Under the pieces are notes generated by a model, which saw only the letters and a program-made list of their open reading frames with translations, did not search any database and was not told the DNA's origin. Below are positions 3,590 to 57,386 of a stretch of 64,000 nt of DNA, piece after piece. The stretch covers positions 108,033 through 172,032 of the forward strand of contig DASWNF010000014.1 in the NCBI GenBank assembly GCA_036399335.1, given 5' to 3'. Both the position numbers and the translations under genes were made by a program. The DNA comes from Minisyncoccota bacterium. Lineage in GTDB: Bacteria > Patescibacteriota > Minisyncoccia > Phycocordibacterales > Phycocordibacteraceae. Position 1 is the stretch's first letter. Each line of letters opens with the position of its first letter.

Positions 3590-4063
3590 TTATAAGTAGG
3601 ATGCGAACTCTTCGTCAGAAAGTTCTAGAAGGGTCGCGTCTCGCGAAATGGGGAGCGTGGTCATCTCAACTCCCATCCAAGGTAAGGGGACGAAATTCTC
3701 CGCCTCTTCCACTGAGGTAAACTCCACTTCGGCACGCATTAAACCCTCATACTTGCCACGATATACCTGTATAGAGATTTTTGGGTTCTCAGAAATGTCG
3801 TAGCGATCTCTAACTAAGGCGTCTGGTGCTACTTTCTTGAGTGTATCGAACTCCTCAGCTGAAATTTCCTTCTTCTCTCGAGTGCGCTCTAAACTAGATA
3901 AAAGTTCCTTTCTTTCATAAAAGTACTTCTCATTTATTTTGGAAATCCTCTCCTCAATATTACCTTCGTTCTTTAGGATATGTCGTTCGTAGTGAAGTGG
4001 GGCTATGCCAGACATGTTAGGCATTTCCCTTACATAAAACTTTCGCTCGATTTCATTTTGCAT
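3590..4063 (-). CDS. CYTH-domain protein (triphosphate tunnel metalloenzyme family)
   Basis: 157 aa; N-terminal EIERKFYV signature of the CYTH/CyaB-ThTPase family; AT-rich; 8 nt upstream of the GNAT gene, so probably co-transcribed. Confidence 0.65.
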   Translation of the reverse strand: MQNEIERKFYVREMPNMSGIAPLHYERHILKNEGNIEERISKINEKYFYERKELLSSLERTREKKEISAEEFDTLKKVAPDALVRDRYDISENPKISIQVYRGKYEGLMRAEVEFTSVEEAENFVPLPWMGVEMTTLPISRDATLLELSDEEFASYL

Positions 4064-4067
4064 AATC

Positions 4068-4370
4068 TCAGGCAGCTTTACATACTTTTTTGGTCACGGC
4101 ATCAACAAATAAACGGAAAGCCGGTCGCCTCTCTTTCTCCCAAATAACCCTTACTCCAAGGATGTGCTTATTGGGGCATGCAAATGTTTCTTCCGCGGTA
4201 GGGACTGCCGAATTGATGATGCGATCTAAGTACATACGCCTCAGCGTACCCGGTCCGTCTTTTTGATAAAGGCAGATGTGCTTCGAACATTTTTCGCAGG
4301 CGATATCCAAAAGTCGAGCATATCCCCCACGAGACTTTCTGTACTTGTCGCTTTTAAGGAGACTAGTCAT
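4068..4370 (-). CDS. small Cys-rich (zinc-ribbon-like) hypothetical protein
   Basis: ~100 aa from an internal Met (MTSLLKSD...); CEKCSKHIC...CPNKH spacing; TACAAT -10-like box 9 nt upstream; the 5' extension of the ORF runs through repeat copy B and is rejected. Confidence 0.45.
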   Translation of the reverse strand: MTSLLKSDKYRKSRGGYARLLDIACEKCSKHICLYQKDGPGTLRRMYLDRIINSAVPTAEETFACPNKHILGVRVIWEKERRPAFRLFVDAVTKKVCKAA

Positions 4371-4389
4371 GCAGTGATTGTAACAACGA

Positions 4390-4418
4390 TTGCTGCACTC
4401 TGGGGCGATGTTGGAACC
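4390..4418 (+). repeat. interspersed repeat copy B: TTGCTGCACTCTGGGGCGATGTTGGAACC
   Basis: Near-consensus copy in the gap between two minus-strand island genes. Confidence 0.6.
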
Positions 4419-4425
4419 AGTATTT

Positions 4426-5097
4426 CTAGTATTTGTCCCCTTCTTCGATAGCAATAACTGGCAATTTATATCCTTCGGTTAGAAGTACCTGCTGTATTTC
4501 ACTTACTCGACCCCTCGGCGCTTCAATATGAGTGAATTTCTTGATAGAAATTGGCTCTAATACCCTATCTTCATGCAAGTCGACAAATTCAGAGCCATGG
4601 GTAATTGCATAGGCTTCGCGTTCAACGCCAATTAGAATTGGGTAGTTGGATGATATATCTGTACCGCCGCGAAGAAGAAGATAAAAAAGCGATTGGTTTT
4701 TGTGGGTAAACTTCGCTATGAATGTCGCGGCCTTACTCCTATAGCCAACAGTAAACGGAAGCGGTACGCGTTCCTTCCAAGCGACCCATACGCTTGGAAG
4801 GAGGTAGCGACAGCACCAGAGGCAACGGTTACAGAGCTCTTGCAAACTTCTCTGGCTTTTTGGGAAAAAGAGGCTTGCATACAAGCGTGCGTACCCTCGC
4901 GAACGGGCAAATGATACTGACCGTGCATGCGGACGCTTTTGGTCTGAAGCGTCGTCATAAATAGAGAGTCCACCTTCGTGCAGTATTCCTTTTAAAATAT
5001 CCATGACTTCTCCATTTTCATATTTATAGCGGCCGGTTCCATGCCAAGAACCAATGTTCTCGTAAAGCTCTTCAATTTTTGAGCTGGGTTCACGCAT
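4426..5097 (-). CDS. hypothetical protein (223 aa), low-GC island cargo
   Basis: Long ORF with AT-rich codon usage distinct from the core genome; no recognisable domain. Confidence 0.5.
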   Translation of the reverse strand: MREPSSKIEELYENIGSWHGTGRYKYENGEVMDILKGILHEGGLSIYDDASDQKRPHARSVSFARSRGYARLYASLFFPKSQRSLQELCNRCLWCCRYLLPSVWVAWKERVPLPFTVGYRSKAATFIAKFTHKNQSLFYLLLRGGTDISSNYPILIGVEREAYAITHGSEFVDLHEDRVLEPISIKKFTHIEAPRGRVSEIQQVLLTEGYKLPVIAIEEGDKY

Positions 5098-5123
5098 AGA
5101 TATAGAAACTATACCAATACTAA

Positions 5124-5149
5124 TTGCTGGACTCTGTGATGTTGGAGCC
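5124..5149 (+). repeat. interspersed repeat copy C: TTGCTGGACTCTGTGATGTTGGAGCC
   Basis: Shortened copy of the consensus. Confidence 0.5.
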
Positions 5150-5205
5150 CTTTTACAGTATGCAATTAGAAGCCCCCGGGATGTTGGTCCCGGGGGCGAG
5201 GCGCT

Positions 5206-5853
5206 TCACGAGAGCGCGAGGGCTTGGAGATTTTCTCGTGCCTGCGGCTCAAGGTGTTTGAAGTGCGGGGTGAGGTAGATCTTTGGGCGTTCGAGGAACG
5301 TGGCAGCCCACATCTTCCTGCCCTCATCGTACTCGGCGCGTGTATACCGCGGCTCGTATTCGAGCCAGATGGCTTCCGTTTGCGACTGGAAGTACGCAGG
5401 GTCCTGTCCCAGCCCCCAGAGATCGAGGTCGATGAGCGGTGCGACGATGTTGACGAAGCGCTCATCCACGCATTCCAGGGTATGGGTGATAGTCGCGGTA
5501 ATGCCCTGGTACACGAGCTCTTCAAGAGGCGGGTGCCGTTCACCGTCACGGCGTTGCAGGTCTTCAATTGCCAGCCGAGCGCTTTCACGCTCGCTCTCAC
5601 CGTGTTCACGACCGACCTTAAGCCAGCGGTCGTGGCTCACGATAAGGAATTTAAGCAGAAGGAGCTCGTTCCCCATCAACACGAGGCCGCGCGCCCCTTC
5701 CAGCATGCCGAGGATATGGTTGGCATCATGGTACGTCCGCCACCTCTCGGAATAGGAGCAGCAGAGAGGCTCGACTGCCGCATAGGGGATGCCGAGCTCG
5801 CCGTAGATTTCGGTAACGGCCAGCCGCAGTTCGTCTGTCGGACTAAATTTCAC
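5206..5853 (-). CDS. hypothetical protein, possible HD-type metal-dependent phosphohydrolase
   Basis: 215 aa; GTG start with strong SD GAGGAGGG 4 nt upstream; His/Asp motifs (RTYHDANH, IVSHD) reminiscent of HD hydrolases; a competing 224-aa antisense ORF (5224..5898) is judged less likely. Confidence 0.45.
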   Translation of the reverse strand: MKFSPTDELRLAVTEIYGELGIPYAAVEPLCCSYSERWRTYHDANHILGMLEGARGLVLMGNELLLLKFLIVSHDRWLKVGREHGESERESARLAIEDLQRRDGERHPPLEELVYQGITATITHTLECVDERFVNIVAPLIDLDLWGLGQDPAYFQSQTEAIWLEYEPRYTRAEYDEGRKMWAATFLERPKIYLTPHFKHLEPQARENLQALALS

Positions 5854-5979
5854 AACGCCCTCCTCAAAGGTCTATGGTTTAAGCCAGCTTCACGATAATA
5901 CACAATAGTGGATATGTATAGGACGATTGGGCCTGGGATGATGCCGAGGTTTTTATATACAAAACCGCCCCAATCATCG

Positions 5980-5996
5980 TTGCTGGGACGGGCTTC
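5980..5996 (+). repeat. degenerate copy (M) of the interspersed repeat: TTGCTGGGACGGGCTTC
   Basis: Left half plus GGGACG core only; intergenic. Confidence 0.25.
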
Positions 5997-6005
5997 ATGG
6001 TCTGA

Positions 6006-6263
6006 TTAGACCGTTTCGAGCTTGGACGGGGGGACATTGGCTTGGTAACCAGGTCCCCCATTGTCGAAGTTGACTCGTACCACTCCCCCCGCATCTTCGG
6101 GGAGATGCTGGAGTCGAGAGTCCCAGACGTCGCCAATCTCTCCTTTCGGAATCGGCGAGTATCCAGGGAAAGGAACCTCCTCGGTCGTTCGCACCCTGCG
6201 ACCGCCCAGAGAAGGACGAACGGGTACTTGCCCGGCGACTCGGTCATCTTTGATAACAGACAT
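6006..6263 (-). CDS. hypothetical small protein (85 aa)
   Basis: ATG preceded by a canonical SD AGGAGGTG at 8-nt spacing. Confidence 0.5.
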   Translation of the reverse strand: MSVIKDDRVAGQVPVRPSLGGRRVRTTEEVPFPGYSPIPKGEIGDVWDSRLQHLPEDAGGVVRVNFDNGGPGYQANVPPSKLETV

Positions 6264-6316
6264 AACACTCACCTCCTGTCGCTATCTAACTACGAATGCA
6301 CCGCTCTGTCCATTAC

Positions 6317-6338
6317 TGCTCTGGGACGATGTTGGAAC
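6317..6338 (+). repeat. interspersed repeat copy D: TGCTCTGGGACGATGTTGGAAC
   Basis: Consensus core; lies 14 nt upstream of a small plus-strand ORF. Confidence 0.55.
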
Positions 6339-6351
6339 TTTTCTGTACGAA

Positions 6352-6540
6352 ATGCCGCCCATTGACCCGGGCGGCACGGCTCGAGACTTACCGTGTCTCG
6401 AGAGCCTCAACCCGCGCAGGAGGCGGATGCTGGAGGCCTGGGAAAAGTTGGCCGCTCTACCGACCCAACTGGTGCTCTTAAGAAATGCTTTGATCAACGC
6501 TTATCAGCGGGGTTGGCCCAAATGTTACTTTCTGAGATGA
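6352..6540 (+). CDS. hypothetical small protein (62 aa)
   Basis: ATG 14 nt downstream of repeat copy D; no SD; Arg-rich; could be a spurious ORF within the high-GC patch. Confidence 0.25.
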   Translation: MPPIDPGGTARDLPCLESLNPRRRRMLEAWEKLAALPTQLVLLRNALINAYQRGWPKCYFLR

Positions 6541-6625
6541 CCCACCTTTCAAATCACTAAACGTAACAGTTTCACCTTTAGAGCCAAACCCGTATCAACT
6601 TCAACGAGGAAATAGAAGTGTAGTT

Positions 6626-6655
6626 TTGCTGGCAGTCTGGGACGACGTTGGAACC
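6626..6655 (+). repeat. interspersed repeat copy E: TTGCTGGCAGTCTGGGACGACGTTGGAACC (near-consensus)
   Basis: Full-length copy. Confidence 0.65.
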
Positions 6656-6659
6656 TTTA

Positions 6660-6693
6660 TTTAAAAGACCACCCTCTCGCCGCAGCGAGAGGG
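6660..6693 (-). terminator. rho-independent terminator of the minus-strand gene 6715..6975
   Basis: Stem CCCTCTCGC/GCGAGAGGG followed by TGGTCTTTT on the minus strand. Confidence 0.5.
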
Positions 6694-6714
6694 GATCTCG
6701 CGGACATTGGGTGG

Positions 6715-6975
6715 TCAGCCTTGTGGCGGCTTATACGGCCTGGTACCGCCGCGCATGGCCATGACAGGAATCGGGAACGCATCGTTGAAGTCGTGGCCGC
6801 CTTCCTCTTCGAGGATCAGGACGACGGCATCGCAAATCGAGTCGAGCTCTTCTTGTTGCATGCCCATGAACTTCTTGGAATAAAGACGCGCCATGACATG
6901 CGAGGTTGTCGGGTCGATGCTGTTCTCCCCCGTGTCATCCGAAATGAAGGTTACGGTCGTCGAGTCGAGGAGCAT
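6715..6975 (-). CDS. hypothetical small acidic protein (86 aa)
   Basis: AGGAG 10 nt upstream of ATG; followed by a terminator. Confidence 0.4.
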   Translation of the reverse strand: MLLDSTTVTFISDDTGENSIDPTTSHVMARLYSKKFMGMQQEELDSICDAVVLILEEEGGHDFNDAFPIPVMAMRGGTRPYKPPQG

Positions 6976-7141
6976 TCCGAGTCGCTCCTGATAGAGCTGT
7001 TGAATCCGAGCACGAATTCTGCGCTTCTGCTCCGCTCACTTGCGTAGAAGCCTGAAATATCAACGATCGGCATGACGCCTCTCCCTTTGTGCTGTTGCAG
7101 GGATTAATATAGCACATATTCACCAGCTTGTCATCACTTCC

Positions 7142-7171
7142 GTGCTGGCAGTCTGGGACGATGTTGGAACC
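7142..7171 (+). repeat. interspersed repeat copy F: GTGCTGGCAGTCTGGGACGATGTTGGAACC (consensus)
   Basis: Full-length copy. Confidence 0.65.
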
Positions 7172-7326
7172 TTTCATACGCTGTGGTAGCTTCTTAGCAC
7201 TTGGCAGGAGGCGTCGGAAAGCTACGGACTATCCGCAGGGATAGAAACGGCACGAGTCGGCATGCATCTGTCCGTTGAACCTACGTAACAGCGAAAGCGA
7301 GGTTGGCAGTTCGGAAAGACGACATC

Positions 7327-7358
7327 GGAGCTTGGTTAAACTAAACCAAGCTCCTTTT
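7327..7358 (+). terminator. rho-independent terminator
   Basis: GGAGCTTGGTTaaactaAACCAAGCTCC followed by TTTTATT; repeat copy G begins right after it. Confidence 0.6.
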
Positions 7359-7359
7359 A

Positions 7360-7388
7360 TTGCTGGCAGTCTGGGACGACGTTGGGAC
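7360..7388 (+). repeat. interspersed repeat copy G: TTGCTGGCAGTCTGGGACGACGTTGGGAC
   Basis: Full-length copy immediately after a terminator. Confidence 0.65.
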
Positions 7389-7694
7389 TTTTTTATCCCC
7401 AGATAGGCACTTATGCTAAACTCGTCACAGATGGCGTGATGCCTGGTACGTAGTACGGAGCAACCCTCTTAGGGCCACTGCTAGTTACCAGTCACGAAAG
7501 GCTTGAAAACGCACCCGTAGCACCCACCATAGCCCTTCCCAGCCCCCTGTTGAGTAGTGCGACCTACTCGTCGCAACAGGGTCGTGGAGGGGTTACTAGG
7601 CAGAAGAACGGCATGCGGCTGGAAGGAGTGTGCGTAAACTCCACTGGTGACATCGCGCCATTGCAGAGAGCACCCGTAAGGGTGTTTTCTGTTT
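7389..7694 (+). ncRNA. candidate structured non-coding RNA (~300 nt), unclassified
   Basis: No credible ORF; nested helices (CCCTGTTG...CAACAGGG enclosing GAGTAG/CTACTC); ends with a GNRA-capped hairpin CACCCgtaaGGGTG plus TTTTCTGTTT terminator at 7671-7694; bounded by repeat copies G and H. Confidence 0.3.
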
Positions 7695-7697
7695 CCC

Positions 7698-7724
7698 TGC
7701 TGGGGTCTGAACGATGCTGGAATC
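7698..7724 (+). repeat. interspersed repeat copy H (divergent): TGCTGGGGTCTGAACGATGCTGGAATC
   Basis: Diverged copy following a terminator. Confidence 0.45.
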
Positions 7725-7734
7725 AAGCTGGGTA

Positions 7735-7765
7735 TTGACAGACTTATTTAAGAGCAGTAAAAAAT
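7735..7765 (+). promoter_or_regulatory. sigma70-like promoter TTGACA-17 nt-TAAAAAAT
   Basis: Near-consensus -35 with 17-nt spacer and an A/T -10; upstream of the 7832 ORF. Confidence 0.45.
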
Positions 7766-7831
7766 ATTACCGCCAAGGTGGCGGTTGCCTGCGAGGAAAT
7801 GTGGGTAAGCATCCTGGAATGGGAGGCTCTA

Positions 7832-8185
7832 ATGAGTGAATCTTTTGTTCTTACGTCGACAGTCAGCTGGGCACGGTATTGGGCTCTCGTGGCCGTGCAC
7901 ATGGAGGTGAAATGCAATCCCTTAATCGCTCAAACGTGCCCGCACAAGGTCATTGTCGAACCCATCGAGAATAACGAGCGCAGCGTAATCGTTCGTGGCA
8001 TGTGCGAAGGGCAGCTCTTCAGGCTGGTTTGCCAGATTTTCCAAGTTCGCACCGGCGGGTGGCGCCTCGTGCGGATTCGTGGTTACGTCGGTACGAACAA
8101 CAACATAAACATGTCTCCCGTGAATTTCGAAGGGTACGAGGCGGCTTGGACGATCATGGAGCGAAATTATAACGAAGTCGACTAG
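7832..8185 (+). CDS. hypothetical protein (~117 aa)
   Basis: Start chosen at an internal ATG preceded by GGGAGG; followed by the terminator at 8199-8250. Confidence 0.4.
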   Translation: MSESFVLTSTVSWARYWALVAVHMEVKCNPLIAQTCPHKVIVEPIENNERSVIVRGMCEGQLFRLVCQIFQVRTGGWRLVRIRGYVGTNNNINMSPVNFEGYEAAWTIMERNYNEVD

Positions 8186-8198
8186 GCCCTGCCTATTC

Positions 8199-8250
8199 AG
8201 AGCCCTGACGGAGAGCCCTCTTGCTCTGCATCAGGGCTCTTCTAATTTTA
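8199..8250 (+). terminator. rho-independent terminator
   Basis: AGAGCCCTGA...TCAGGGCTCT stem followed by TCTAATTTTA. Confidence 0.45.
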
Positions 8251-8274
8251 AGTTGGCAGACTAGGTTTCGAACT
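8251..8274 (+). repeat. variant copy K of the repeat family: GTTGGCAGACTAGGTTTCGAACTC
   Basis: J/K subfamily (TTGCTGGCAGAyTAGGTTTCGAAC); marks the right border of the low-GC island, just upstream of yebC. Confidence 0.5.
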
Positions 8275-12252: not shown

Positions 12253-12810
12253 TTATACGAGGCCGCTTTGCAGCAGCTTTTTAGTAAACCGGTGCATTTG
12301 GGGATCGAGGATTGCTGGGTCAGCAGCTAGCACTTCTTCGTATCCAAACCATCGGTAGCCATGGAATTCGCTTGTGTCGAAAGTAATATGCTGCCTTGAG
12401 TCCCCTTTCACTACATACCAGAAACTCACGTCGGTATGCCCTGCAGTTAAGCCAACAGTAACCGTACGCGTGAGGAAGATTGGTAACTCAGAAATAAAGT
12501 CTGCATTTATATTAAGTTCTTCTTGTATTTCTCGCTCAACTGTCGTTTTTGGATGCTCGCCCTTCTCGACGTGCCCGCCGCTTGGCAGCCAAAGGCAGGC
12601 TTTAATATGGTCCATAAGCAGAATCTTTTTTGCCTCTGGATCTACAACAACAAAGTATGAAACAAGATGTTTGGGTGGCACGTCTGGTTTCTCAATGCGA
12701 AATATCTCTACTTCGCTCTCGATCCAATTAACAGCATCGGTAATTGTTTGCTTCTCTAGATCATCATATGGGCTTATGGCCCGTATGAGTGCGTGTATTT
12801 GCTCTCTCAT
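12253..12810 (-). CDS. NUDIX hydrolase
   Basis: Nudix box GGHVEKGEHPKTTVEREIQEELN. Confidence 0.8.
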   Translation of the reverse strand: MREQIHALIRAISPYDDLEKQTITDAVNWIESEVEIFRIEKPDVPPKHLVSYFVVVDPEAKKILLMDHIKACLWLPSGGHVEKGEHPKTTVEREIQEELNINADFISELPIFLTRTVTVGLTAGHTDVSFWYVVKGDSRQHITFDTSEFHGYRWFGYEEVLAADPAILDPQMHRFTKKLLQSGLV

Positions 12811-14170: not shown

Positions 14171-15544
14171 TTAAACAAGGAGGCTGCGTATGTCCTGAAT
14201 CTCCTTCGCGAGTTCAGCATCGTTAACGATTTCCCGCTTCACTTTCTCGCACGAATGGATGACGGTCGTATGGTCGCGTCCGCCAAGCTTGCTGCCGATG
14301 GTCGGGTACGAGACGCTGAAGTCCTCACGGAGGATATACATGATGACCTGGCGAGGCCGCACCACTTCCCTGCGGCGGGTCTTCTCATAGATACTGTCTT
14401 CCTCAATGCCGTAGAACTCGGCGATCTTTGAGACGACATGTTTCACTGAGACGGTCTTGGTAGGCCGCGAGAATGAGCGGAGCGATTGGCGCACCTCGGC
14501 AAGGTCGGGCGGTATGCCCTTTACCTGCGTATGGCAGACAATCGAATTGATGACGCCCTCGAGCTCGCGAATAGAGCCTGATACGGAGGTCGCAATGAAC
14601 TCTACCGCCTCTTCAGCGAGCGTAATGCCTTGGGAAGCGAGCTTCTTCCGCACGATGGCAATACGGGATTCGGCGTCAGGCTCGCTGATATCGACCGTCA
14701 TGCCGCTCGCAAGGCGCCCGCGAAGGCGATCGGCGATATCAGGAATCGCTACCGGTGCCCTATCGGAGGAGAAGACGATCTGCTTGTTGTTGTCGTAGAG
14801 GGAGTTAAAGAGGTGGAAGAGCTCCTCCTGGAACTTGTCCTTCTTCGAGAAGAACTGGACGTCGTCGATGATGAGGAGGTCATACCCGCGGTACTTATCC
14901 TTAAAGCGGTTTGCCGTCCCGAGCTGGAGGGAGTCGGTGAACTCGTTTCCGAACCGGTCCGAGGTCAGGTAATAGACCTTCCGGGAGGGATAGAGCTTCT
15001 TGTACTGGTTCCCTATCGCCTGGATAAGGTGGGTCTTGCCGCGGCCGGTATCCCCGTAGATGAAGAGCGGGTTGTAGGTAATGCCGGGGCGATGAAGCGC
15101 TGCCTGGGCAGCCGTATAGGCGAGCTCGTTGAAGGGGCCGACGACGAAGGTGTCGAAGGTATAGCGCGGGTTGAGGTTGTCGCTCTTATTAATGTAGAAG
15201 TCGTTTAGCGGGAGCTCGGTGTTTGGCACCGGAGCGCGGCGTACTTCCTTGGGTTTTCGGGATGCGTCCTTCACTATCGTGTACTCGATATTGCGGTACT
15301 CGTATGAGACCCCACGCAAGATCTTGAGAAGGAGCGTGTGGAACTTCTTGAGGTACCAGTCGCGGAAGAACTGGCTCGGTACGCCGATGTAGACGATACC
15401 GTCCTCTATCTTCTGGATCGAACTCTCACGGAACCAGGTGTTGAAGTTGGCGGGCGAGATGGAGAGCTCGACCTGGGTGAGCATGAATTCCCATAACTCA
15501 TGCGGGTCAGAACGGTTAACAACGTTAGAAAGGGTGAGACTCAT
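14171..15544 (-). CDS. dnaA: chromosomal replication initiator DnaA
   Basis: 457 aa; AAA+ Walker A GDTGRGKTHL; C-terminal DNA-binding domain; canonical synteny. Confidence 0.95.
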   Translation of the reverse strand: MSLTLSNVVNRSDPHELWEFMLTQVELSISPANFNTWFRESSIQKIEDGIVYIGVPSQFFRDWYLKKFHTLLLKILRGVSYEYRNIEYTIVKDASRKPKEVRRAPVPNTELPLNDFYINKSDNLNPRYTFDTFVVGPFNELAYTAAQAALHRPGITYNPLFIYGDTGRGKTHLIQAIGNQYKKLYPSRKVYYLTSDRFGNEFTDSLQLGTANRFKDKYRGYDLLIIDDVQFFSKKDKFQEELFHLFNSLYDNNKQIVFSSDRAPVAIPDIADRLRGRLASGMTVDISEPDAESRIAIVRKKLASQGITLAEEAVEFIATSVSGSIRELEGVINSIVCHTQVKGIPPDLAEVRQSLRSFSRPTKTVSVKHVVSKIAEFYGIEEDSIYEKTRRREVVRPRQVIMYILREDFSVSYPTIGSKLGGRDHTTVIHSCEKVKREIVNDAELAKEIQDIRSLLV

Positions 15545-36471: not shown

Positions 36472-38043
36472 TTACGGTTGGGCAGTGGTCGCCGTAAGCC
36501 GAGCGACCAGGGCTGTAAAGGCCGCTTCGTCCCGCACGATGATGAGGGTCTGGCGGTCAGCATACCCATAGAGGATAAGCGAGCGGCCGGAACGGTCGCG
36601 GAGCACGCGTACGTCGTGGTTCGCAACGACTGCGTCGACGAAGTTTTGCGGCGCCGGAGGCAGGAGCGGCTGCATGACAATGCTCGAAGTTGCCGTCGTT
36701 GGCGTAACGGGCTCAGGCATAACCGTACTTGTCGCATATTCCGGATACCAGAGACCCAGATCGGTAACCATGCGGTTCTCCCAACCGAGCATGCCGGCGA
36801 ATGTCCGCTCATATGAATTCACACGAAGGATGAAGAACGGCCTCGTCTCTCCTCCTGCGGCTATGACGCCGACGGTGCTTGAGAGGTCGACGTTACGCAT
36901 GAGTATGTCCGGAGCACCGAGACTGAGGCGGCGGATGAGCGCACCCCCGGGCTGCGGGGAGTTTGAGAGCCCGAGCGGCGTCGAGCTGGCTTCGGTCACA
37001 TAGGTCACAAGGATGTTCCCTTCGACGAGCGGTTGCCCTGCGGCGTCCGCGAGATCCTGTCGGTAGTTAGGGCCCATGAGTTCCATCTTCTCGTCAGCGT
37101 ATATGAGTGACGGGACGCCAAGCGTAGCCTGCTCCACGTTCCGATTCGTGGTGAACTGGTATGCGGCGAAGAGGCCGCCCGCTCCGAGCACGATAAGGAG
37201 TACGGAAAAGACCACCGGCAGGATGTGCCGTTCTTTCTTGGGCGCGGTGCGGCGGGTACCCGCATCCTTTTCCGCCGCGAGGACGCTGAAGGTAGAGGCG
37301 CGCTGGCTGTCGATGCGATCGGCAAAGTCCGAGGTATACGTGTGAAGCGAAGGTGCCCCCGCATCTTTCTGAAGCGGTATAACTCCGGGCGGCGGCATGG
37401 AGGGAGGCGCAGGCGCAACGTACGGCGGAGGGGCCGGTATGGGCGGAGGAACAGGCGCGGGCGGTATGTAAGCCGGTGGTGCAGGCGGAACATATGCTGG
37501 CTGAGGAGGCGGTGCGGGCGGGGGGGTGTACGCCGGAGGAGGGGGGACAGGTGCTGGCGGAACGTATGGCGGTGGCGGAGGAACAGGCGCGGGCGGCACG
37601 AATACGGGTGTCGGGGGAGGAGGTGGGACTGGAGGAGGTACTGGCCCTGCGGCAACTTTCTGGCGAAGGCGTGCGAGTACGGCTTCGCGCTGTTCGTCGG
37701 CGGATGGTGACGGTGGTGCAGGCGGCGGCGGCGGTTGTGTCGGTGCTGGCGGCGTGGGTGCCGGCCTTCGCACGGTAAAGATGTCTGCACTGTCGTCCTT
37801 CGAGAGCTCGAGAGTTTCTTGTGGGAAGTCGTGCACGATACCGCCCGGCCGATTTACGGGGGATGCATCGAACTCCGGCAAGGTAACGCTGTCGGCAGCG
37901 GGAGCTGCGGGCTTCGGGGACTGGGGCACCGGCTGGTTCGTAAGCCGAGCCACGTCTTTCGCATACGTACGGATGTACGGCGACATGTCGCGCGAGGGAT
38001 CGTTTCCTTGGTTTTGGTCTCCCGCAGGGGTAGCGTCAGCCAT
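36472..38043 (-). CDS. proline-rich membrane protein (523 aa)
   Basis: SD AAGGAG; ~150-aa run of PPxP repeats (PVPPPPPYVPPAPVPPPPAYTPPPAPPPQPAYVPPAPPAYIPPAPVPPPIPAPPPYVAPAPP); one TM; C-terminal globular domain. Confidence 0.6.
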   Translation of the reverse strand: MADATPAGDQNQGNDPSRDMSPYIRTYAKDVARLTNQPVPQSPKPAAPAADSVTLPEFDASPVNRPGGIVHDFPQETLELSKDDSADIFTVRRPAPTPPAPTQPPPPPAPPSPSADEQREAVLARLRQKVAAGPVPPPVPPPPPTPVFVPPAPVPPPPPYVPPAPVPPPPAYTPPPAPPPQPAYVPPAPPAYIPPAPVPPPIPAPPPYVAPAPPSMPPPGVIPLQKDAGAPSLHTYTSDFADRIDSQRASTFSVLAAEKDAGTRRTAPKKERHILPVVFSVLLIVLGAGGLFAAYQFTTNRNVEQATLGVPSLIYADEKMELMGPNYRQDLADAAGQPLVEGNILVTYVTEASSTPLGLSNSPQPGGALIRRLSLGAPDILMRNVDLSSTVGVIAAGGETRPFFILRVNSYERTFAGMLGWENRMVTDLGLWYPEYATSTVMPEPVTPTTATSSIVMQPLLPPAPQNFVDAVVANHDVRVLRDRSGRSLILYGYADRQTLIIVRDEAAFTALVARLTATTAQP

Positions 38044-39031: not shown

Positions 39032-39145
39032 TGAGCCTACCTTACCACACCTTGACTATTTATGCAAGTGTACCGAAAAAGCGGAGCGGTCAGTCTCGAG
39101 CCTGAGCTAAACATTGTGCGAAGCTCCAGATGCTACACTTTTACC

Positions 39146-40057
39146 ATGCAAGCCGAGCCCATGAAGCGACAATTCCTCGAATATATCGAGATCGAGCGCG
39201 GCCGTGCCGTGAAGACCATAGAAAACTATGACCATTACCTCACCCGCTTCTTCGCGCAGATGAACATCACGGATACGTCGGACATTACCGAAGACCGCGT
39301 ACGCGAATTTCGCATGTGGCTTAATCGCCAGCCGGGCGTGTCGGGCTCAATGAAGCGTCGTACCCAGAATTATTACCTCATCGCGCTCCGTGCCTTCCTC
39401 AAGTACTTGCGGAAGCGCGATGTCGTCGCGCTGTCCCCCGAAAAGATAGAGCTCGCAAAACTCCCCGAGCGTTCACTCGACCTCATAAGTTCCGCCGAAC
39501 TCGAGCGGCTGATGGACGCTACCAAGGGCGACGATATCAAGGCCTTCCGCGACCGCGCCATCCTCGAACTCCTTTTCTCGACTGGCCTTCGCGTCTCCGA
39601 GCTCTGTTCGCTCGATAGCGACCTCGACCTCACGCGCGATGAGTTCTCCGTCCGCGGTAAGGGCGACAAGGTTCGTGTCGTATTCTTGTCGCCGGCCGCA
39701 AAGGAATCCGTACGCACGTACCTGGCAGCACGGAAGGACATGGAGGAGGCGCTCTTCGTCAGTACGCCCCGCGGCGGCAAGGGCGGAGGTCCCATGTCCG
39801 TGCCTACCCGACTTACTCCCCGCTCGATAGAGATGCTCATCAAGACCTACGCCACCAAGGCCGGCATAACGAAGAAGGTCACGCCCCACGTCCTTCGCCA
39901 CTCCTTCGCAACGGACCTCTTAAGTAACGGTGCGGACATCCGTTCCGTACAGCAGCTTCTCGGGCATGCCTCCATAAACACCACCCAGATCTATACGCAC
40001 GTCACCGACGCCCACCTCCGAGAGGTGCATAAGAAGTTCCACTCCCGCAGCCGCTAG
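39146..40057 (+). CDS. tyrosine site-specific recombinase XerC/XerD family
   Basis: C-terminal catalytic motifs HVLRHSFAT...LLGH...TQIYTHV; start at an internal Met of the 39062 ORF. Confidence 0.85.
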   Translation: MQAEPMKRQFLEYIEIERGRAVKTIENYDHYLTRFFAQMNITDTSDITEDRVREFRMWLNRQPGVSGSMKRRTQNYYLIALRAFLKYLRKRDVVALSPEKIELAKLPERSLDLISSAELERLMDATKGDDIKAFRDRAILELLFSTGLRVSELCSLDSDLDLTRDEFSVRGKGDKVRVVFLSPAAKESVRTYLAARKDMEEALFVSTPRGGKGGGPMSVPTRLTPRSIEMLIKTYATKAGITKKVTPHVLRHSFATDLLSNGADIRSVQQLLGHASINTTQIYTHVTDAHLREVHKKFHSRSR

Positions 40058-40442: not shown

Positions 40443-41090
40443 CTATTTCTTTTTACCCACAAATCGCACGAGGTTTGAGTTGCCGAGCGCCCGGTCCTTA
40501 TAAGTCTCTCCGAGTTCGTCAAGGATTATAGGATTGAAATCCCCTACGTATGCGCTTAACGACTGGGCACTAAAGTACCGCTTCTTTACTCCATCAACTA
40601 AAAAATACCCGTCCTCAATAAATGTTCCTTTCCCAAACTCAGCATCATGTACGGAGTTAAGTAGGAGCGTTAAGACTCCACCCTCCTTAAGTACTCGCGC
40701 GAATTCGCCGATAAGAGTTCGTGTTTCAACCTCCGTAAAATAGTGTGCGGCGAGATGTGAGTGCACTACGTCAAACTCCCCGTCTTGAAATGGCAGCCTC
40801 GAAGCGAGGTCAGCTTCGATAAAAGATAGGCGGCTCGCCAATACAGGTGGAGTCTTCTCAATCGCCTTTTGTATTCCTGCAGGAGCAAAGTCCATTCCGG
40901 TCACGTGGTATCCCCTTCCAGCAAAAAATCTTGAGTCCTGCCCTTGTCCACAACCGGCGTCCAGTACTTTTCCTTCCGCTGGGAAATATTCAAGTACGGA
41001 CTCAGCGAATAGGGTCGGCTTATGTATCCAATCGGTGTGTGCGTACCGCTCGTGGGCCTCGTCCCAGTACGGCTTCGGCGCTATTACCAT
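40443..41090 (-). CDS. class I SAM-dependent methyltransferase
   Basis: Motif I VLDAGCGQGQD; motif post-I; 215 aa. Confidence 0.75.
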   Translation of the reverse strand: MVIAPKPYWDEAHERYAHTDWIHKPTLFAESVLEYFPAEGKVLDAGCGQGQDSRFFAGRGYHVTGMDFAPAGIQKAIEKTPPVLASRLSFIEADLASRLPFQDGEFDVVHSHLAAHYFTEVETRTLIGEFARVLKEGGVLTLLLNSVHDAEFGKGTFIEDGYFLVDGVKKRYFSAQSLSAYVGDFNPIILDELGETYKDRALGNSNLVRFVGKKK

Positions 41091-41188
41091 GCTCCAATAC
41101 TACATTACTGCCGGATTCTGAAATGATGGAACCTTTCTACAACTATGATAGGTTGGGAACCAGAACTGCGAGGGAGGATTCCGTGAGA

Positions 41189-41503
41189 ATGATAAGCCTT
41201 AGCCTCCCGCTTGGTGTGGGAGACAATCGAATCGATGCATTTTGGTCCGTATTGGCCGCAGAAATTAATGCCCGTGGAGGCTTGGCTCAAGGACAGGTCG
41301 ACTTCTTCACCCATCCAACGAAAATCAGGTCGGTGTATGTCTTGGTGTATGAGGCCGTGGTCATTGACCTGATCACTGACGCACTCCGTGAAGCCTTGGG
41401 TTCCACGTGGCCCGAACACACTAACCTCTATGTAATTGAGTCCTTGGTTCGAGGGGAAAGCATCGTTCGTCTAGGCATGGTCCGCGGTGGGAAAGGAGAT
41501 TAA
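41189..41503 (+). CDS. hypothetical protein (~105 aa)
   Basis: SD AGGGAGG upstream of GTG/ATG; preferred over the antisense ORF 41105..41419. Confidence 0.35.
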   Translation: MISLSLPLGVGDNRIDAFWSVLAAEINARGGLAQGQVDFFTHPTKIRSVYVLVYEAVVIDLITDALREALGSTWPEHTNLYVIESLVRGESIVRLGMVRGGKGD

Positions 41504-41591
41504 TGACACCAAGTAAAAGCCCCTGCAATGAGGGGCTTCTTTTATCTTGGCAGAATAGGTTCCAGACCTTTGGGTGGTATAGAATGCGGGC

Positions 41592-45655: not shown

Positions 45656-45739
45656 GAAGCCCTTCCCTTCATGCTCTCTGCATGATAGGTATGGTAGAGA
45701 TTGCAGAGTTTACTTAATTACCACCTAGTCATATTACCC

Positions 45740-46873
45740 ATGTCTATCACCAAGAACGGCTTCATATTGGCCGCTGTAAGCGCGCTTTTCCTCGCTTCGG
45801 CGGTTATTGCCCCTATAAGTGCCCAGGCGCAGACTTCCTGCTCCTTTTACCGTAACCTCGCCGTAGGTTCTTCGGGCGGCGATGTTTACTGCCTCCAGAA
45901 CTGGCTCGCTGCACAGGGCTACTTTGCTGCGGGTTCGACCGGCTACTACGGTCCAATCACCCAGCAGGCCGTAATCCGCTGGCAGCTTGCCTCTGGACAG
46001 CCGGCTACCGGCGTCTTCACTCCGGGTAGCTTTGGCCGCGAACTCGCGCCGCTCGGCGTGTCCTATACGAATAACTCAGCCGGTGCCGCTGATGCTATTC
46101 GGGACGCGGAAGAGGCTATCGATGATGCTGAAGACGAAATTGACGACGCGAGCGGAAGTCGTGCAGACGAAGCCGAAGACCTCCTCGACGACGCAGAAGA
46201 CGAGCTCGATGATGCTCGCCGCGCCTATGCGTCTGCTGACTACAGCCGCGCTATCGACCACGCCGAAGAGGCGGAAGACCTGGCCAACGAAGCCATTGAC
46301 GAGGTCGACGGTGACCGCAACGACCGTGATAACGACCGTGACGACGAAGACCGTGACGACGCGGCTGATGCCATTGATGACGCCCGCAACTCACTCGATG
46401 ATGCGTGGGACGAGGTAGATGAAGCATGGGAAGACGGTTGGGACACCGACGAGGCCGAAGATACCCTTCATGACGCCGATGACGTCCTGATGGACGCTGA
46501 GGACGCGTACGACGACCGTGACTACGACGAGGCACTCGACCTTGCCGACGTAGTCGAAGACCTCATCAGCGAGGCTCTCGATGAGATAGACGAGGACCGT
46601 GATGATGATTGGGATAACGACTACTACGGGAACGCTACTGACGCTCGGGATGCCCTCGAAGACGCTGAGGATAACCTCAACGATGCGTGGGATGACCTTG
46701 ATGACGCTTGGTATGACGGTTGGGACACCGACGAGGCCGAAGACATCCTCCACGACGCCGATGACGCCCTTATGGATGGCTGGGATGCCTACCGTGACGG
46801 TGATTACAGCGAGGCACTCGACCTTGCCGATGAAGTCGAAGACCTCATTGACGAGGCAATGGACGAAATCTAA
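45740..46873 (+). CDS. secreted protein with peptidoglycan-binding (PG_binding_1-like) domain and a long acidic D/E repeat region
   Basis: Signal/TM MSITKNGFILAAVSALFLASAVIA; DVYCLQNWLAAQGYFAAGSTGYYGPITQQAVIRWQ PG-binding motif; ~55-aa repeats DAEDxLDDAxDAYDDGDYDEALDLADEVEDLIDEALDEID; terminator at 46896-46925. Confidence 0.7.
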   Translation: MSITKNGFILAAVSALFLASAVIAPISAQAQTSCSFYRNLAVGSSGGDVYCLQNWLAAQGYFAAGSTGYYGPITQQAVIRWQLASGQPATGVFTPGSFGRELAPLGVSYTNNSAGAADAIRDAEEAIDDAEDEIDDASGSRADEAEDLLDDAEDELDDARRAYASADYSRAIDHAEEAEDLANEAIDEVDGDRNDRDNDRDDEDRDDAADAIDDARNSLDDAWDEVDEAWEDGWDTDEAEDTLHDADDVLMDAEDAYDDRDYDEALDLADVVEDLISEALDEIDEDRDDDWDNDYYGNATDARDALEDAEDNLNDAWDDLDDAWYDGWDTDEAEDILHDADDALMDGWDAYRDGDYSEALDLADEVEDLIDEAMDEI

Positions 46874-47010: not shown

Positions 47011-48180
<1,170 letters not shown>

Positions 48181-53359: not shown

Positions 53360-54811
53360 CTATGCCTGGTGCTCGGCCTGTTCCTCCGTGGTGACATCGC
53401 GGTCTTCGAGGTTGGTCGAGTCGCCGCTGTCGGAGAGCTTCATCTCGTCCTCGACGGTAAGCGCACCGGAGTCGTTGGTTGCGTCGTCCTCAGTCGTGAC
53501 GACCGAGGCGCTTTCGTTTGGTGCGATGCCTGCCTCGATAGATGGGCTCCGTTCTACCGCAGCTTCTGCGGCCTCAAGCTCGCCTTCAACGGCGATGCTC
53601 GTGTCGGGGGCGTTCTTCTTCTCGGCGTAGAGTTCGCTTGAATCGGCACCGCCCACGGCGTCTCCGCCGACCGAAGCGATGTCGATGTTCCAGCCGGTCA
53701 GCTTTGCGGCGAGGCGTACGTTCTGTCCGCCGCGGCCGATAGCGAGCGACTGCTGGTCTTCTGAAACGGTAACAGTGGCACGGTGGCCGGCTTCGTCGAG
53801 CTCAACTTCGAGCACGGTCGCAGGCGAGAGGGCTTCCTTAATGAAGTCACTCTGGTTCTCCGACCATTCGATGATGTCGATGCGTTCGCCGCCGAGCTCG
53901 CCCATGACGGTCGAGACGCGGACGCCGCGCTGGCCGACGAGCGAACCGACCGGGTCGACATGCGGGTCAAGCGAACCGACGGCAATCTTCGTACGGCTGC
54001 CGGCTTCGCGTGCAAGCCCCTTCACTTCAAGGCTGCCCGCAGCGAGCTCCGGTACCTCGGCTTCAAAAAGCTTCACGAGGAACTTCGGATGCGAACGGGA
54101 CAGGCGCAGGTATACGCCGCGAAATCCTTCGTCCACGTTGTAAAGGAAGGCGCGGATGCGCTCTCCGGGACGGAAACGTTCGCCGGGAATCTGCTCCTCG
54201 TACGGGATGATACCGGTTGCGCGGCCGAGGTCGACGAAGATGGCGCCGCGCTCTACGCGCTGCACGATGCCCGATACGATCTCGCCCTTCTTGTGGCCGA
54301 ATTCCTCCAAGATAGAAAGTTTCTCGGCTTCGCGGATCTTCTGGATGACGACCTGCTTCGCCGTCTGTGCGGCGATGCGGCCGAAGTCGTCCTGAGGTTC
54401 GAGCGGGAAGACTATTTCGCCGCCCAGCTCGGCGTCGCGCTTAATGCGCTTCGCGTCCTCAAGGAGGATGTGCTTTTCGGCGTCAAAGCGTGGCAGCTCG
54501 CCCTCGGGAACCTCTTCGTGCTCATGATGAAAACGATCCTGGTGTTCGTGGACTACCTCGGCAGCTTCAGCTTCCTCCTCGGGGGAGGGGAAGCGGACCA
54601 TGCTTTCGTCGACGATGGACTTCACTTGCTCAAAGCCGACGCTACCCGAGTTCATGTCGAGCATGGCGCGCACGATCTGGCCGCGCTTGCCGTACTCCTT
54701 CTTGTACGCCGTTGCCATCGCGGATTCGATGGCCTCGAGCATGGTTTCGCGGGAAATTCCGCGATCCTCGAACTCTCCAAGCACGGAATGTATTGTTTTT
54801 AGGTCCAACAT
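53360..54811 (-). CDS. nusA: transcription termination/antitermination factor NusA with a long acidic C-terminal extension
   Basis: N-terminal domain, S1 and two KH domains, then a ~90-aa D/E-rich tail. Confidence 0.9.
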   Translation of the reverse strand: MLDLKTIHSVLGEFEDRGISRETMLEAIESAMATAYKKEYGKRGQIVRAMLDMNSGSVGFEQVKSIVDESMVRFPSPEEEAEAAEVVHEHQDRFHHEHEEVPEGELPRFDAEKHILLEDAKRIKRDAELGGEIVFPLEPQDDFGRIAAQTAKQVVIQKIREAEKLSILEEFGHKKGEIVSGIVQRVERGAIFVDLGRATGIIPYEEQIPGERFRPGERIRAFLYNVDEGFRGVYLRLSRSHPKFLVKLFEAEVPELAAGSLEVKGLAREAGSRTKIAVGSLDPHVDPVGSLVGQRGVRVSTVMGELGGERIDIIEWSENQSDFIKEALSPATVLEVELDEAGHRATVTVSEDQQSLAIGRGGQNVRLAAKLTGWNIDIASVGGDAVGGADSSELYAEKKNAPDTSIAVEGELEAAEAAVERSPSIEAGIAPNESASVVTTEDDATNDSGALTVEDEMKLSDSGDSTNLEDRDVTTEEQAEHQA

Positions 54812-54954
54812 AGCCTTCCTTTATTTAGTTGTGCGCACGTATGTAATTGTCGCCTCGTTAATAAGAAATGCCCGCGGGGGCGGACATTTCAGGTAATAAA
54901 AACGTACCATATATATAGGTGGGGGGTCAATGAAGCCCGCACGGATTGAGTCGG

Positions 54955-54974
54955 CTCTGGGGCGATGTTGGAAC
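54955..54974 (+). repeat. interspersed repeat copy I: CTCTGGGGCGATGTTGGAAC
   Basis: Right-half consensus copy downstream of the low-GC gene. Confidence 0.55.
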
Positions 54975-54986
54975 TTTGTACCCGTC

Positions 54987-55532
54987 TTAAGTTTCCGAAT
55001 AAACACTACCTGTTTGAGTAGTTGATCCCGTGCGTACATCAAGCTCCCACTCCCCGTATGTGCTCCCGCCCCCATCTCCACTGTACGTGGTAAAGAATAC
55101 TGTGTATTCATCTATAAAACGAAGACTGTCCGGATTTATGCCGGGGCCTCCTGTGTAAGAACCAATGTACTCAATAGCAGGCGTATCAGCCCATACCGAT
55201 TCGAGAAAGAAATAGCAGGTAGGCGCTCCATAAGGACCGCATGTTGAATTCCTAAAACCGTCAGTCTCTCGCTCGACTACGACATAAAGCGCATCGTATT
55301 TTTTTGAACTTGTTGAAAGTTGTGAAATGAATTTGTTCCTTACGATGCTTACTATCTTGAACCTGGAGCTCTCATACAACTCACGAGTCGATAGACCTTC
55401 TTTAGTTTCTGTCAGAGTTGATGAGGGTGTTGTTTTAAAATCACTAGTCTTTGAGTAAGAGACATAAGATAGTATTCCTAACAAAGCAACTAGGAGAAGC
55501 GGCACAACAATTCGACCGGCTTTTATATTCAT
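54987..55532 (-). CDS. secreted hypothetical protein (181 aa), low-GC single-gene insertion
   Basis: Signal peptide MNIKAGRIVVPLLLVALLGILSYVSYS; AT-rich codon usage unlike the flanking core genes; TATTAT -10 box 9 nt upstream; flanked by repeat copies I and J. Confidence 0.6.
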   Translation of the reverse strand: MNIKAGRIVVPLLLVALLGILSYVSYSKTSDFKTTPSSTLTETKEGLSTRELYESSRFKIVSIVRNKFISQLSTSSKKYDALYVVVERETDGFRNSTCGPYGAPTCYFFLESVWADTPAIEYIGSYTGGPGINPDSLRFIDEYTVFFTTYSGDGGGSTYGEWELDVRTGSTTQTGSVYSET

Positions 55533-55553
55533 ATAGAACGATAATAGCAGTGA

Positions 55554-55578
55554 TTGCTGGCAGATTAGGTTTCGAACC
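55554..55578 (+). repeat. variant repeat copy J: TTGCTGGCAGATTAGGTTTCGAACC
   Basis: J/K subfamily; upstream of the low-GC gene. Confidence 0.55.
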
Positions 55579-55634
55579 TATTCCCACATGAAAGGCATTA
55601 AGCCCACCCTTATGCACGCTATACTGCATACAGC

Positions 55635-57386
55635 ATGCAGGTTGCAGAAAGCGAACTGAAAACATTCATCCTCGATTCGGGGCTCGTGTCGCGTGCCGAA
55701 GTCGACGACGCGGAGAAGGAAGCAAAAGAACGGAAGCAGTCCATCGGCGACATCCTCGTGTCAAAGGGCACCTTATCCGAGGACGCGCTCCGCCGTATCA
55801 AGGCATACGTGCTCGGCATTCCTTTTGTGAACCTGAAGGAGCTCAAGGTGCCGCTCGACGTCCTCTCGCTCATCCCGGAGCCGATCGCGCGCACGCACAA
55901 CATCATCGCGTATAAGAAGACGGATAAAGGGCTCGAGGTAGCCATGCTCGACACCGAAGACTTGCCGGCTATCGACTCGGTCAGGAAGAAGACACGCCTT
56001 AACATCCTCCCGCGCCTTACGGACGACGAGTCAATCAAGCATGCGCTCCTGCAGTACCAGAAGTCCCTCAAGGAAGAGTTCGGCGACCTCATCACGACCG
56101 AGGCCAGCCGGCTTACGCTCGTCTCTGAAGACCCGTCGGGCGAGACCTCGGGCGAGGATTTGAAGCGCATGGCCGAAGACCTGCCTATCGTCCGCATTGT
56201 CGACACGCTCCTGCGCCACGCCATCATGGAAGACGCCTCTGACATCCATATCGAGCCTATGGAGAAGGAGGTCATGGTCCGGTACCGCATCGACGGCATC
56301 CTGCACGACGCGATGACGCTCCCGAAGCAGGCATCCGCCGGGCTTACGGCCCGCATCAAGGTGCTTTCATCCTTGAAGCTTGATGAAAAGCGCCTTCCGC
56401 AGGACGGACGCTTCAAGATGGAGACGGAGCGCGACAAGGTCTCCTTCCGCGTGTCGCTCCTCCCGACTTACTACGGCGAGAAGATCGTCATGCGCCTCCT
56501 TCGCGAGAGCGGGGAAGGGTTCACGCTCGATGCCCTCGGCTTCCATGGTGCTCCCCTCGAACGCATCCACCAGGCGGTGAAGCAGACGACCGGCATCATC
56601 CTTATTTCCGGACCGACGGGCTCGGGCAAGACGACTACCCTCTATACTGTCCTCGACATCCTCAATACGCCCCAGGTAAACATCTCCACGGTCGAAGACC
56701 CGATCGAGTACCAGATGAAGCGCGTGAACCAGACGCAGGTGAACCCGGCAATCGGCTTTACGTTCGCGAACGGCCTCCGCGCGCTCCTGCGCCAGGACCC
56801 GAACATCATCATGGTCGGCGAAATCCGTGACAGCGAGACGGCATCGCTTGCCATCAACGCCGCGCTCACCGGCCACCTCGTCCTTTCGACCATCCACACG
56901 AATAGCGCATCCGGCGCCATCCCGCGCCTCATGGATATGGGTGTCGAACCGTTCCTCCTCGTGTCGACCCTACGTCTCGTTGTCGGGCAGCGCCTCGTAC
57001 GCCGCCTCTGCGACAGCAAGCAGCCGTATACGCTCGATGATGTCGCGCGCGCAAAGGTCGCGACCGAGGACCGCTTTGGTGCGGCGCTCGAAGCCCTGAC
57101 CTCCGAGAAGCTCGTGAAGCCAGGAACGGCGATAGGGGAGGTGCCGTTTTATAAGCCGGTGCCGTCTCCCGAATGCGACGATGGGTACCAAAGCCGTATC
57201 GGCATCCACGAAGTCCTCTCCATTTCACCTGCCATACGCGAACTCATCCTCCATAACGGCACGCCGGACGCCATCGAGGCCCAGGCGCAGAAGGAAGGCA
57301 TGCTCACCATGCTTGAGGACGGCGTGTACAAGAGCGCCCGGGGCATCACTTCGCTCGAGGAAGTGCTTCGCGCTATCTCGGAATAG
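55635..57386 (+). CDS. pilB: type IV pilus assembly ATPase PilB (GspE family)
   Basis: Walker A GPTGSGKTTT, Asp box, His box, tetracysteine-region remnant; 583 aa. Confidence 0.9.
   Translation: MQVAESELKTFILDSGLVSRAEVDDAEKEAKERKQSIGDILVSKGTLSEDALRRIKAYVLGIPFVNLKELKVPLDVLSLIPEPIARTHNIIAYKKTDKGLEVAMLDTEDLPAIDSVRKKTRLNILPRLTDDESIKHALLQYQKSLKEEFGDLITTEASRLTLVSEDPSGETSGEDLKRMAEDLPIVRIVDTLLRHAIMEDASDIHIEPMEKEVMVRYRIDGILHDAMTLPKQASAGLTARIKVLSSLKLDEKRLPQDGRFKMETERDKVSFRVSLLPTYYGEKIVMRLLRESGEGFTLDALGFHGAPLERIHQAVKQTTGIILISGPTGSGKTTTLYTVLDILNTPQVNISTVEDPIEYQMKRVNQTQVNPAIGFTFANGLRALLRQDPNIIMVGEIRDSETASLAINAALTGHLVLSTIHTNSASGAIPRLMDMGVEPFLLVSTLRLVVGQRLVRRLCDSKQPYTLDDVARAKVATEDRFGAALEALTSEKLVKPGTAIGEVPFYKPVPSPECDDGYQSRIGIHEVLSISPAIRELILHNGTPDAIEAQAQKEGMLTMLEDGVYKSARGITSLEEVLRAISE

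Follow-up and report, generated by a model that had tools for sequence, protein, structure and literature searches.

The window analysed here is a 64,000-nucleotide stretch from a genome of Candidatus Paceibacterota (CPR) with a GC content of about 0.60. Within it, the divergent genes nusA and pilB are separated by a gap of 823 bp, inside which lies orf181. This gene stands out by its composition: its GC and GC3 values are 0.43 and 0.37, as against 0.61 and 0.74 in nusA and 0.61 and 0.80 in pilB. The initial annotation had singled out a low-GC gene of 181 AT-rich codons upstream of nusA, with one type of repeat on one side and a variant on the other. Both points hold, and the two repeats, which we call I and J, exceed what shuffled sequences produce by chance. 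The features of the locus are as follows.

53360-54811, minus strand: nusA, with NusA_N, S1 and KH domains (Pfam).
54812-54925, minus strand: promoter of nusA (TTGACC ... TATATATGGTA) followed by the 5' leader, which contains a conserved hairpin; core flank towards nusA.
54946-54978, plus strand: I-type repeat, the distal boundary of the proposed cassette, with its core TCTGGGGCGATGTTGGAAC at 54956-54974.
54987-55532, minus strand: cargo gene orf181, 181 aa, ATG start, GC 0.43.
55541-55549, minus-strand reading: possible extended -10 box TGCTATTAT, 8 nt upstream of the orf181 ATG.
55553-55580, plus strand: J-type repeat ATTGCTGGCAGATTAGGTTTCGAACCTA, the proposed attachment site, with its core TGGCAGATTAGGTTTCGAAC at 55558-55577.
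55581-55634, plus strand: promoter and leader of pilB, whose -10 box (TATACT) is conserved among relatives; core flank towards pilB, beyond J.
From 55635, plus strand: pilB-type ATPase gene, T2SSE (Pfam).

The unit from I to J measures 602 bp, a size typical of the metagenome units described below. The I repeat lies 8 nt past the orf181 stop codon, with about 20 nt between it and the conserved -35 box of nusA, and the J repeat lies 58 nt upstream of the pilB ATG. Immediately past the I repeat, the promoter and leader of nusA are intact, so the low-GC orphan gene upstream of nusA can be explained without invoking a change in the nusA operon. The suggestion that rimP would normally precede nusA had to be dropped: pilB is the divergent neighbour of nusA in 71 of the 80 relatives that we compared, and nine representative ORFs from the pilB–nusA gaps of these relatives gave no match to RimP. 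The nusA leader contains a hairpin of its own (GAAATGTCCGC-ACCC-GCGGGCATTTC, then a T-rich run), which is present in 29 of 30 aligned sequences and retains three of its five predicted pairs through two-sided changes. Judging from this pattern it looks like an attenuator, possibly serving NusA autoregulation.

In the predicted structure of the orf181 protein (mean pLDDT 75), residues 6-28 form an N-terminal hydrophobic helix (transmembrane or signal), which a disordered linker joins to a beta domain of eight strands. The protein belongs to no Pfam family, and a comparison of the predicted fold with the PDB gave nothing significant, the best matches being weak and resembling beta-propeller blades (best E 0.012). 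The family is small: only four close relatives occur among 5.8 billion proteins, and its approximately 122 cluster representatives are all unannotated. According to the structural model, orf181 is probably a membrane-anchored or secreted surface protein. The earlier label of secreted protein corresponds to no more than this predicted helix and the beta-rich domain that follows it.

Both repeats recur in the window. Allowing up to two mismatches, the I core has six copies, all on the plus strand, and J has exact copies at the target and at 8254 and a weaker third copy at 41548; in 100 shuffles, the expectation for either repeat was zero. Outside the target, these copies and a set of degenerate ones make up two arrays.

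4389-8274, plus strand: array A, in the low-GC island between ruvB and yebC, made of I copies and a terminal J.
4389-4421, 6310-6342, 6626-6658, 7142-7174 and 7360-7392, plus strand: I copies of array A.
Near 3017, 5138 and 7700: degenerate I copies of array A.
8250-8274, plus strand: terminal J of array A, 40 nt before yebC.
40443-41090, minus strand: low-GC methyltransferase gene, left of array B.
41103-41569, plus strand: array B, made of a degenerate I, an ORF, a terminator and J.
About 41103-41145: degenerate I of array B, about 400 nt left of J.
41189-41503, plus strand: 104-aa ORF of array B, followed by the terminator.
41543-41569, plus strand: J of array B, adjoining the exonuclease III gene.

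Each window copy of J immediately precedes a promoter, namely that of yebC, of the exonuclease III gene or of pilB. Since the same I and J build the ruvB–yebC array, the target indeed belongs to the repeat system of that island, as had been proposed. At the target, the I core has one mismatch to the consensus, and the whole repeat is the most degraded of the six window copies, its left acceptor-like part reading GAGTCGGC where the consensus reads TGCTGGCAG. The orf181 cassette may therefore no longer be mobile, or may be fixed. A 13-nt match in the pyrophosphatase gene (LWDDG) was judged to be due to chance.

A low-GC (0.46) NUDIX hydrolase gene (12253-12810, minus strand), without flanking I or J, adjoins dnaN near dnaA (14171-15544) and may be another foreign insertion. 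On the plus strand, 45701-46873 and 47011-48180 encode proteins of about 390 aa with signal-peptide-like N-termini and Asp/Glu-rich internal repeats (families D1-D3 and D6), and these two genes are probable paralogues. Gly-rich repeats of the GGN type (family D4, 37442-37756) lie within a 523-aa ORF (36472-38043, minus strand).

What are these repeats? The reverse complement of J, GGTTCGAWACCTAGTCTGCCAGCAA, reads as a T-loop, the 3' strand of a T-stem, an acceptor strand TCTGCCA and a discriminator G, with the T-arm ATAGG-TTCGAAA-CCTAA. Bacterial tRNA-Gln ends in this form, with U1-A72 and G73. Read in this way, J is the last 25-30 nt of tRNA-Gln, from the T-loop to the acceptor end, and at three metagenome loci (L090, L095 and L164) J overlaps the 3' end of annotated tRNA-Gln genes. 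The I repeat is a different sequence of 31 nt with, on the window plus strand, the consensus GCTGG-NN-GTCTGGGACGATGTTGGAAC over 113 copies, and its acceptor-like half CCCAGACTGCCAGCAA matches the tRNA-Gln/J end CCTAGTCTGCCAGCAA at all but 2 of 16 positions. The target locus itself contains a fragment of the tRNA and no full gene: ARAGORN called no tRNA gene near it, Rfam gave no match on 55480-55680 at E up to 10, and the upstream flank of J aligned with tRNA-Gln showed no significant similarity (p ~0.95). We thus rejected a tRNA gene or pseudogene at J, since none of the three detected more than the 3' fragment.

Dyad symmetry is restricted to the T-arm in J, and inspection of the sequence revealed none in I. 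Folded as single-stranded DNA, neither strand of I reaches the stability of its shuffled controls (z +0.9 to +2.1), which rules out attC-like hairpins. Readings of the repeats as sigma-54 or sigma-70 promoters were also discarded, since their positions relative to genes are inconsistent.

A scan of metagenomes with the I core revealed how widespread and how ordered these arrays are. Among the 120 matches listed, at least 56 loci carry true I repeats, defined by the context TTGCTGG-NN-GT...AAC-CTTT. The system is thus found in at least 56 metagenome contigs in addition to several Paceibacterota species, and the core is nearly invariant in 113 copies from many metagenomes, with unrelated flanks. 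Among the matches listed, the I copies of a locus are co-oriented with a single exception, and all 24 of the 24 loci in which the end of the array is visible finish on the same side. At 13 of them the terminus is a full-length tRNA-Gln gene (UUG or CUG), encoded on the opposite strand and matched at its 3' end by the J model; at the other 11 it is only J. The arrays of the window, L001, L011, L012, L014 and L028 each read I...I and then J.

Between the repeats of the matches listed we counted 87 units. Their lengths run from 100 to 2676 bp around a median of 533 bp, and they usually contain one ORF. The gene points one way in 51 units and the other way in 27, and nine units have no ORF of at least 40 aa; the occurrence of genes in both orientations points to a site that acts at the DNA level. 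Some cassettes, at least, have promoters and terminators of their own; in L014, I is directly followed by a TTGACA-17-TATAAT promoter. The J sites that lack a full tRNA begin sharply at GGTTCGA and adjoin yebC, pilB, the exonuclease III gene, tpiA or the end of pilC, and in four species J abuts the pilC stop codon.

Certain metagenome loci show additional features. L100 and L108 carry a second tRNA-Gln 3'-end fragment past the resident gene, differing from the resident 3' end, and L090 carries a partial copy of the tRNA-Gln D-arm/anticodon region past the complete gene; these extra fragments are signs of repeated events at the tRNA. In L125 (oriented), the region 2937-5942 holds two small ORFs and then, between the last I and tRNA-Gln, a 553-aa ORF. 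Inspected by eye, its product resembles a reverse transcriptase whose C-terminal region is protease-like, and the ORF is likely to be defence cargo in the array.

Not every match to I marks an array. Nearly all matches in a scan of viral sequences fall inside one widespread phage C5 DNA methyltransferase gene (L161 6318-7499, and viral loci L209-L328), where the I core and its flanks GTCTGGGACGAYGTTGGAACCTT are identical over 23-24 nt within the sequence encoding VVWDDVGTFDG. Because this methyltransferase family is about 90% identical throughout, the I-like segment is not specially conserved in it, and the match is probably coincidental, the alternative being an old link. In L103 (oriented), the gene of a 498-aa large serine recombinase (150-1643) includes an 18-mer of I where it encodes KGSPNIVPDPE. 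Translated, the reverse complement of I gives KGSNIVPD, and we judged this 18-mer (PNIVPDPE) to be a chance coding match rather than a real site.

The same cargo occurs at other loci. A homologue of orf181 with 62% identity lies downstream of metK in another species (L082, JAIETW010000001.1), between two I repeats that face the same way with respect to the gene as I does in the window. The homologue has a GC of 0.41 while its neighbours have about 0.50, and one cassette away a complete tRNA-Gln(CTG) gene stands in the position of J. A second homologue, 73% identical, has an I-like repeat immediately upstream (L087). At the positions matching the possible -10 box of orf181, we read by eye TGCTACAAT in L087 and TGATAGTAT in L082, and orf181 has a probable promoter of its own by this comparison; a consensus promoter scan found none able to serve orf181 and did not call the extended -10 box, and a terminator scan found none in the cassette region and none separating orf181 from nusA. 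Similarly, a GNAT gene located between two I repeats in L189 shares 66% identity with the one at 3031-3582 of the window.

How does the target locus compare with that of relatives? Across 80 related nusA loci from different species (L001-L080), the gene block pilC-pilB / nusA-ppa-clpP is conserved, and no orf181 homologue is found in any of the 80, nor does any of them have I or J at this position. The gene is therefore not conserved at this position. In the 71 species where pilB is the divergent neighbour, the pilB–nusA gap is hypervariable (141-4129 bp) and filled with unrelated ORFs (TetR, TrmB, unknowns and small secreted proteins), with no detectable I or J in any of them (0/71). Judging from these contents, the gap is a general hotspot on which other insertion processes act as well. 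The initial annotation had looked ahead to an empty site with a single repeat, and none was found in any relative or conspecific, exact-protein look-ups returning the same arrangement alone. Nor did we see an empty J site: relatives without an array are also without J at tpiA, at the end of pilC and between pilB and nusA. There was no target-site duplication at the pilB and nusA promoter junctions or at the L001 tpiA site.

Array contents, in turn, change between genomes that share an array site. L011 and L014 have flanks that are about 90% identical; homology is lost in the array and resumes exactly at the first base of J. L182 and the window have the arrangement ruvB...J-yebC in common, and the content from ruvB to J is different except for the I repeat. 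According to these two comparisons, J-only sites are long-lived hotspots with changing content. Together with the homologues found between I repeats at other loci, this turnover, with homology resuming at J, supports the role in mobility or recombination that had been suggested for the repeat.

To explain these observations, we propose serial, integron-like insertion at a tRNA-Gln-type site by a recombinase provided in trans, which is our best reading of the data. In the orientation of tRNA-Gln, the arrays would be built as [tRNA-Gln 3' end or J] - cassette - [I] - cassette - [I]. The model adds a circular intermediate, a crossover position and an enzyme: a circular cassette with one I would recombine with J in the acceptor-like segment that both have in common, with the exchange predicted inside CTGCCAGCAA. 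Insertion would regenerate J beside the core gene and leave I on the far side, so that repeated insertion would stack the cassettes, the newest at J and the older ones pushed outward. The recombinase would be supplied in trans rather than encoded by the array. At the target, one orf181 cassette would be bounded by J towards pilB and by a decaying I towards nusA. The observed array order is the product expected from serial site-specific insertion. A crossover in the T-loop, or a J carried by the incoming circle, predicts many J and one I, or a disrupted tRNA, and was rejected because it contradicts that order. On balance, we consider it reasonably probable that 54946-55580 is a horizontally acquired one-gene cassette of an integron-like array system that uses a tRNA-Gln site in Paceibacterota and related CPR.

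Several points count against the model. J seems to arrive together with the cassettes, because relatives without an array also lack J, and simple insertion leaves this arrival unexplained; in addition, J-only sites retain no trace of the rest of the tRNA. The lack of dyad symmetry and of a hairpin in I is unusual for the core site of a tyrosine or serine recombinase. The gap genes without repeats in relatives and the lack of a linked recombinase also weigh against it. The window contains only one tyrosine recombinase gene.

39062-40057, plus strand: Xer-like tyrosine recombinase gene, with Phage_integrase and SAM-like N-terminal domains.

The gene stands at the I-distal side of array B, to the left of the J at 41548; the intervening 1.5 kb or so hold a pyrimidine-dimer glycosylase gene and the low-GC methyltransferase gene. 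At arrays elsewhere no such linkage was seen. Its protein had no BLAST match among the ORFs of the array loci, and phmmer searches with this protein, E. coli XerD and gamma-delta resolvase gave weak matches only (best E 0.009, an L103 ORF). No recombinase was seen when the ORFs flanking long arrays were inspected by eye, and among the matches listed none was found in or beside the arrays of 56 metagenome loci, nor an integrase in any of the 87 units; the target cassette consists of orf181 alone. The window Xer-like gene is a candidate for the enzyme only because it is present.

The lack of a recombinase in or near the arrays examined is what would be expected if RecA swapped DNA taken up by the type IV pilus or competence system, the repeats being portable homology that calls for no dedicated recombinase. 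CPR encode pilus and DNA-uptake genes, pilB and pilC adjoin the target, and cassettes are flanked by repeats on both sides. However, the conserved stretch of about 19-31 nt is short for RecA, the near-invariant core amid unrelated flanks in the 113 copies points to recognition by a protein, and homologous exchange does not require the strict polarity of the arrays (24/24 among the matches listed). We regard this explanation as unlikely.

The repeats could also be the att scars of integrase-bearing tRNA-Gln elements that have since lost all but one gene. Attachment at the 3' end of a tRNA is a classic pattern, in which successive integrations push older elements outward, as in tycheposons, and the extra tRNA-Gln fragments beside full genes in L090, L100 and L108 fit such a history. 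Decay of this kind accords poorly with 87 units that are small, tight in size (median 533 bp) and free of integrase remnants, with an I that is a distinct conserved 31-mer instead of a plain tRNA fragment, and with a one-gene unit that recurs intact in different genomes. It is quite unlikely to be the origin of the arrays.

If the repeats were regulatory DNA, an operator or promoter-associated motif, they would mark the variable regions and not cause them. In 51 of 78 units, the longest ORF indeed has the I repeat on its upstream side, the L014 promoter directly follows I, and the window J copies stand just ahead of three promoters. Yet I lies downstream of the gene at the target, 27 units have the opposite gene orientation, J abuts the pilC stop in four species and, at 13 loci, forms the 3' end of a tRNA gene, and the breaks in synteny coincide with the repeats, which makes a purely regulatory motif improbable. 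A non-autonomous unit of the transposon type, ending in I on one side and in J on the other and moved by a transposase encoded elsewhere, would fit the minimal modules bounded exactly by I and J where relatives have neither (the target and the L001 tpiA site), but we consider it highly improbable given ends that are direct and not inverted, the lack of a target-site duplication, arrays with many I and one J, and complete tRNA-Gln genes in the position of J.

Returning to insertion at the tRNA-Gln-type site, we propose, tentatively, that it represents an undescribed gene-capture platform of CPR, with a 31-nt cassette site, an acceptor formed by the 3' end of tRNA-Gln (or by portable copies of this end beside housekeeping genes) and a recombinase elsewhere in the genome or on a transient element. 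The genomes of CPR/Patescibacteria are very small and, to our knowledge, contain few recognised mobile elements. If the proposal is true, the platform would be a main route for accessory and defence genes in these reduced, host-dependent bacteria and would offer a testable mechanism for CPR gene flux. The sequence tag GCTGGNNGTCTGGGACGATGTTGGAAC provides a handle on the CPR accessory gene pool, which includes at least one likely defence gene. The part of the literature that we searched describes neither the repeat sequence nor a link between tRNA-Gln and Patescibacteria, and the repeat/cassette system is apparently undescribed.

Which known systems does it resemble? Small units bounded by short sites, and the presence of a Xer-like gene in the window, recall pdif/Xer modules, in which one to a few genes are flanked by short conserved sites and moved by a chromosomal recombinase acting in trans. 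However, dif-like sites are 28-bp imperfect inverted repeats with XerC and XerD arms that alternate in orientation around modules, whereas I has no dyad symmetry and the I and J sites are co-oriented (with one exception in metagenomes), so the arrays do not qualify as pdif modules. MITE or IS elements do not fit either, since I and J are direct repeats and no target-site duplication accompanies them.

Tycheposons, which are several kb long and encode their own tyrosine recombinase, differ from the units described here, which measure 0.1-2.7 kb and contain no integrase. Like a tRNA-targeted element, the arrays attach at a tRNA 3' end, but they lack an element-encoded integrase; moreover, the internal junction is a distinct 31-mer with about 16 nt in common with the tRNA end, and J-only sites occur away from tRNA genes. 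In Prochlorococcus, tycheposons attach at tRNA genes, leave partial tRNAs at their junctions, and are displaced by newer insertions (bioRxiv 10.1101/2020.12.28.424599). In both cases, variable islands are formed in streamlined genomes (bioRxiv 10.1101/2020.12.28.424599).

The resemblance to integrons and CALINs lies in the array itself: small, mostly single-ORF cassettes of a few hundred bp, a comparable size, are separated by co-oriented repeats, one distinct primary site stands at the end of the array, and the content turns over between relatives. Integrons also grow by serial insertion, through attI x attC recombination. Here, by contrast, I is a sequence-conserved 31-nt site without a hairpin, unlike attC, which is an imperfect inverted repeat of 57-141 bp defined by its structure; the place of an attI beside intI as primary site is taken by the 3' end of tRNA-Gln or by a copy of it; the arrays have no adjacent integrase; and genes occur in both orientations, at least some cassettes having promoters and terminators of their own. 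Thus, a co-oriented single-ORF array is present, and the attC hairpin and the adjacent IntI are not. The system fails the defining features of both integrons and tRNA islands, and yet it shares the workings of integrons with those of tRNA-island accretion. If our reading is correct, it would extend the integron idea to a sequence-defined, tRNA-derived site.
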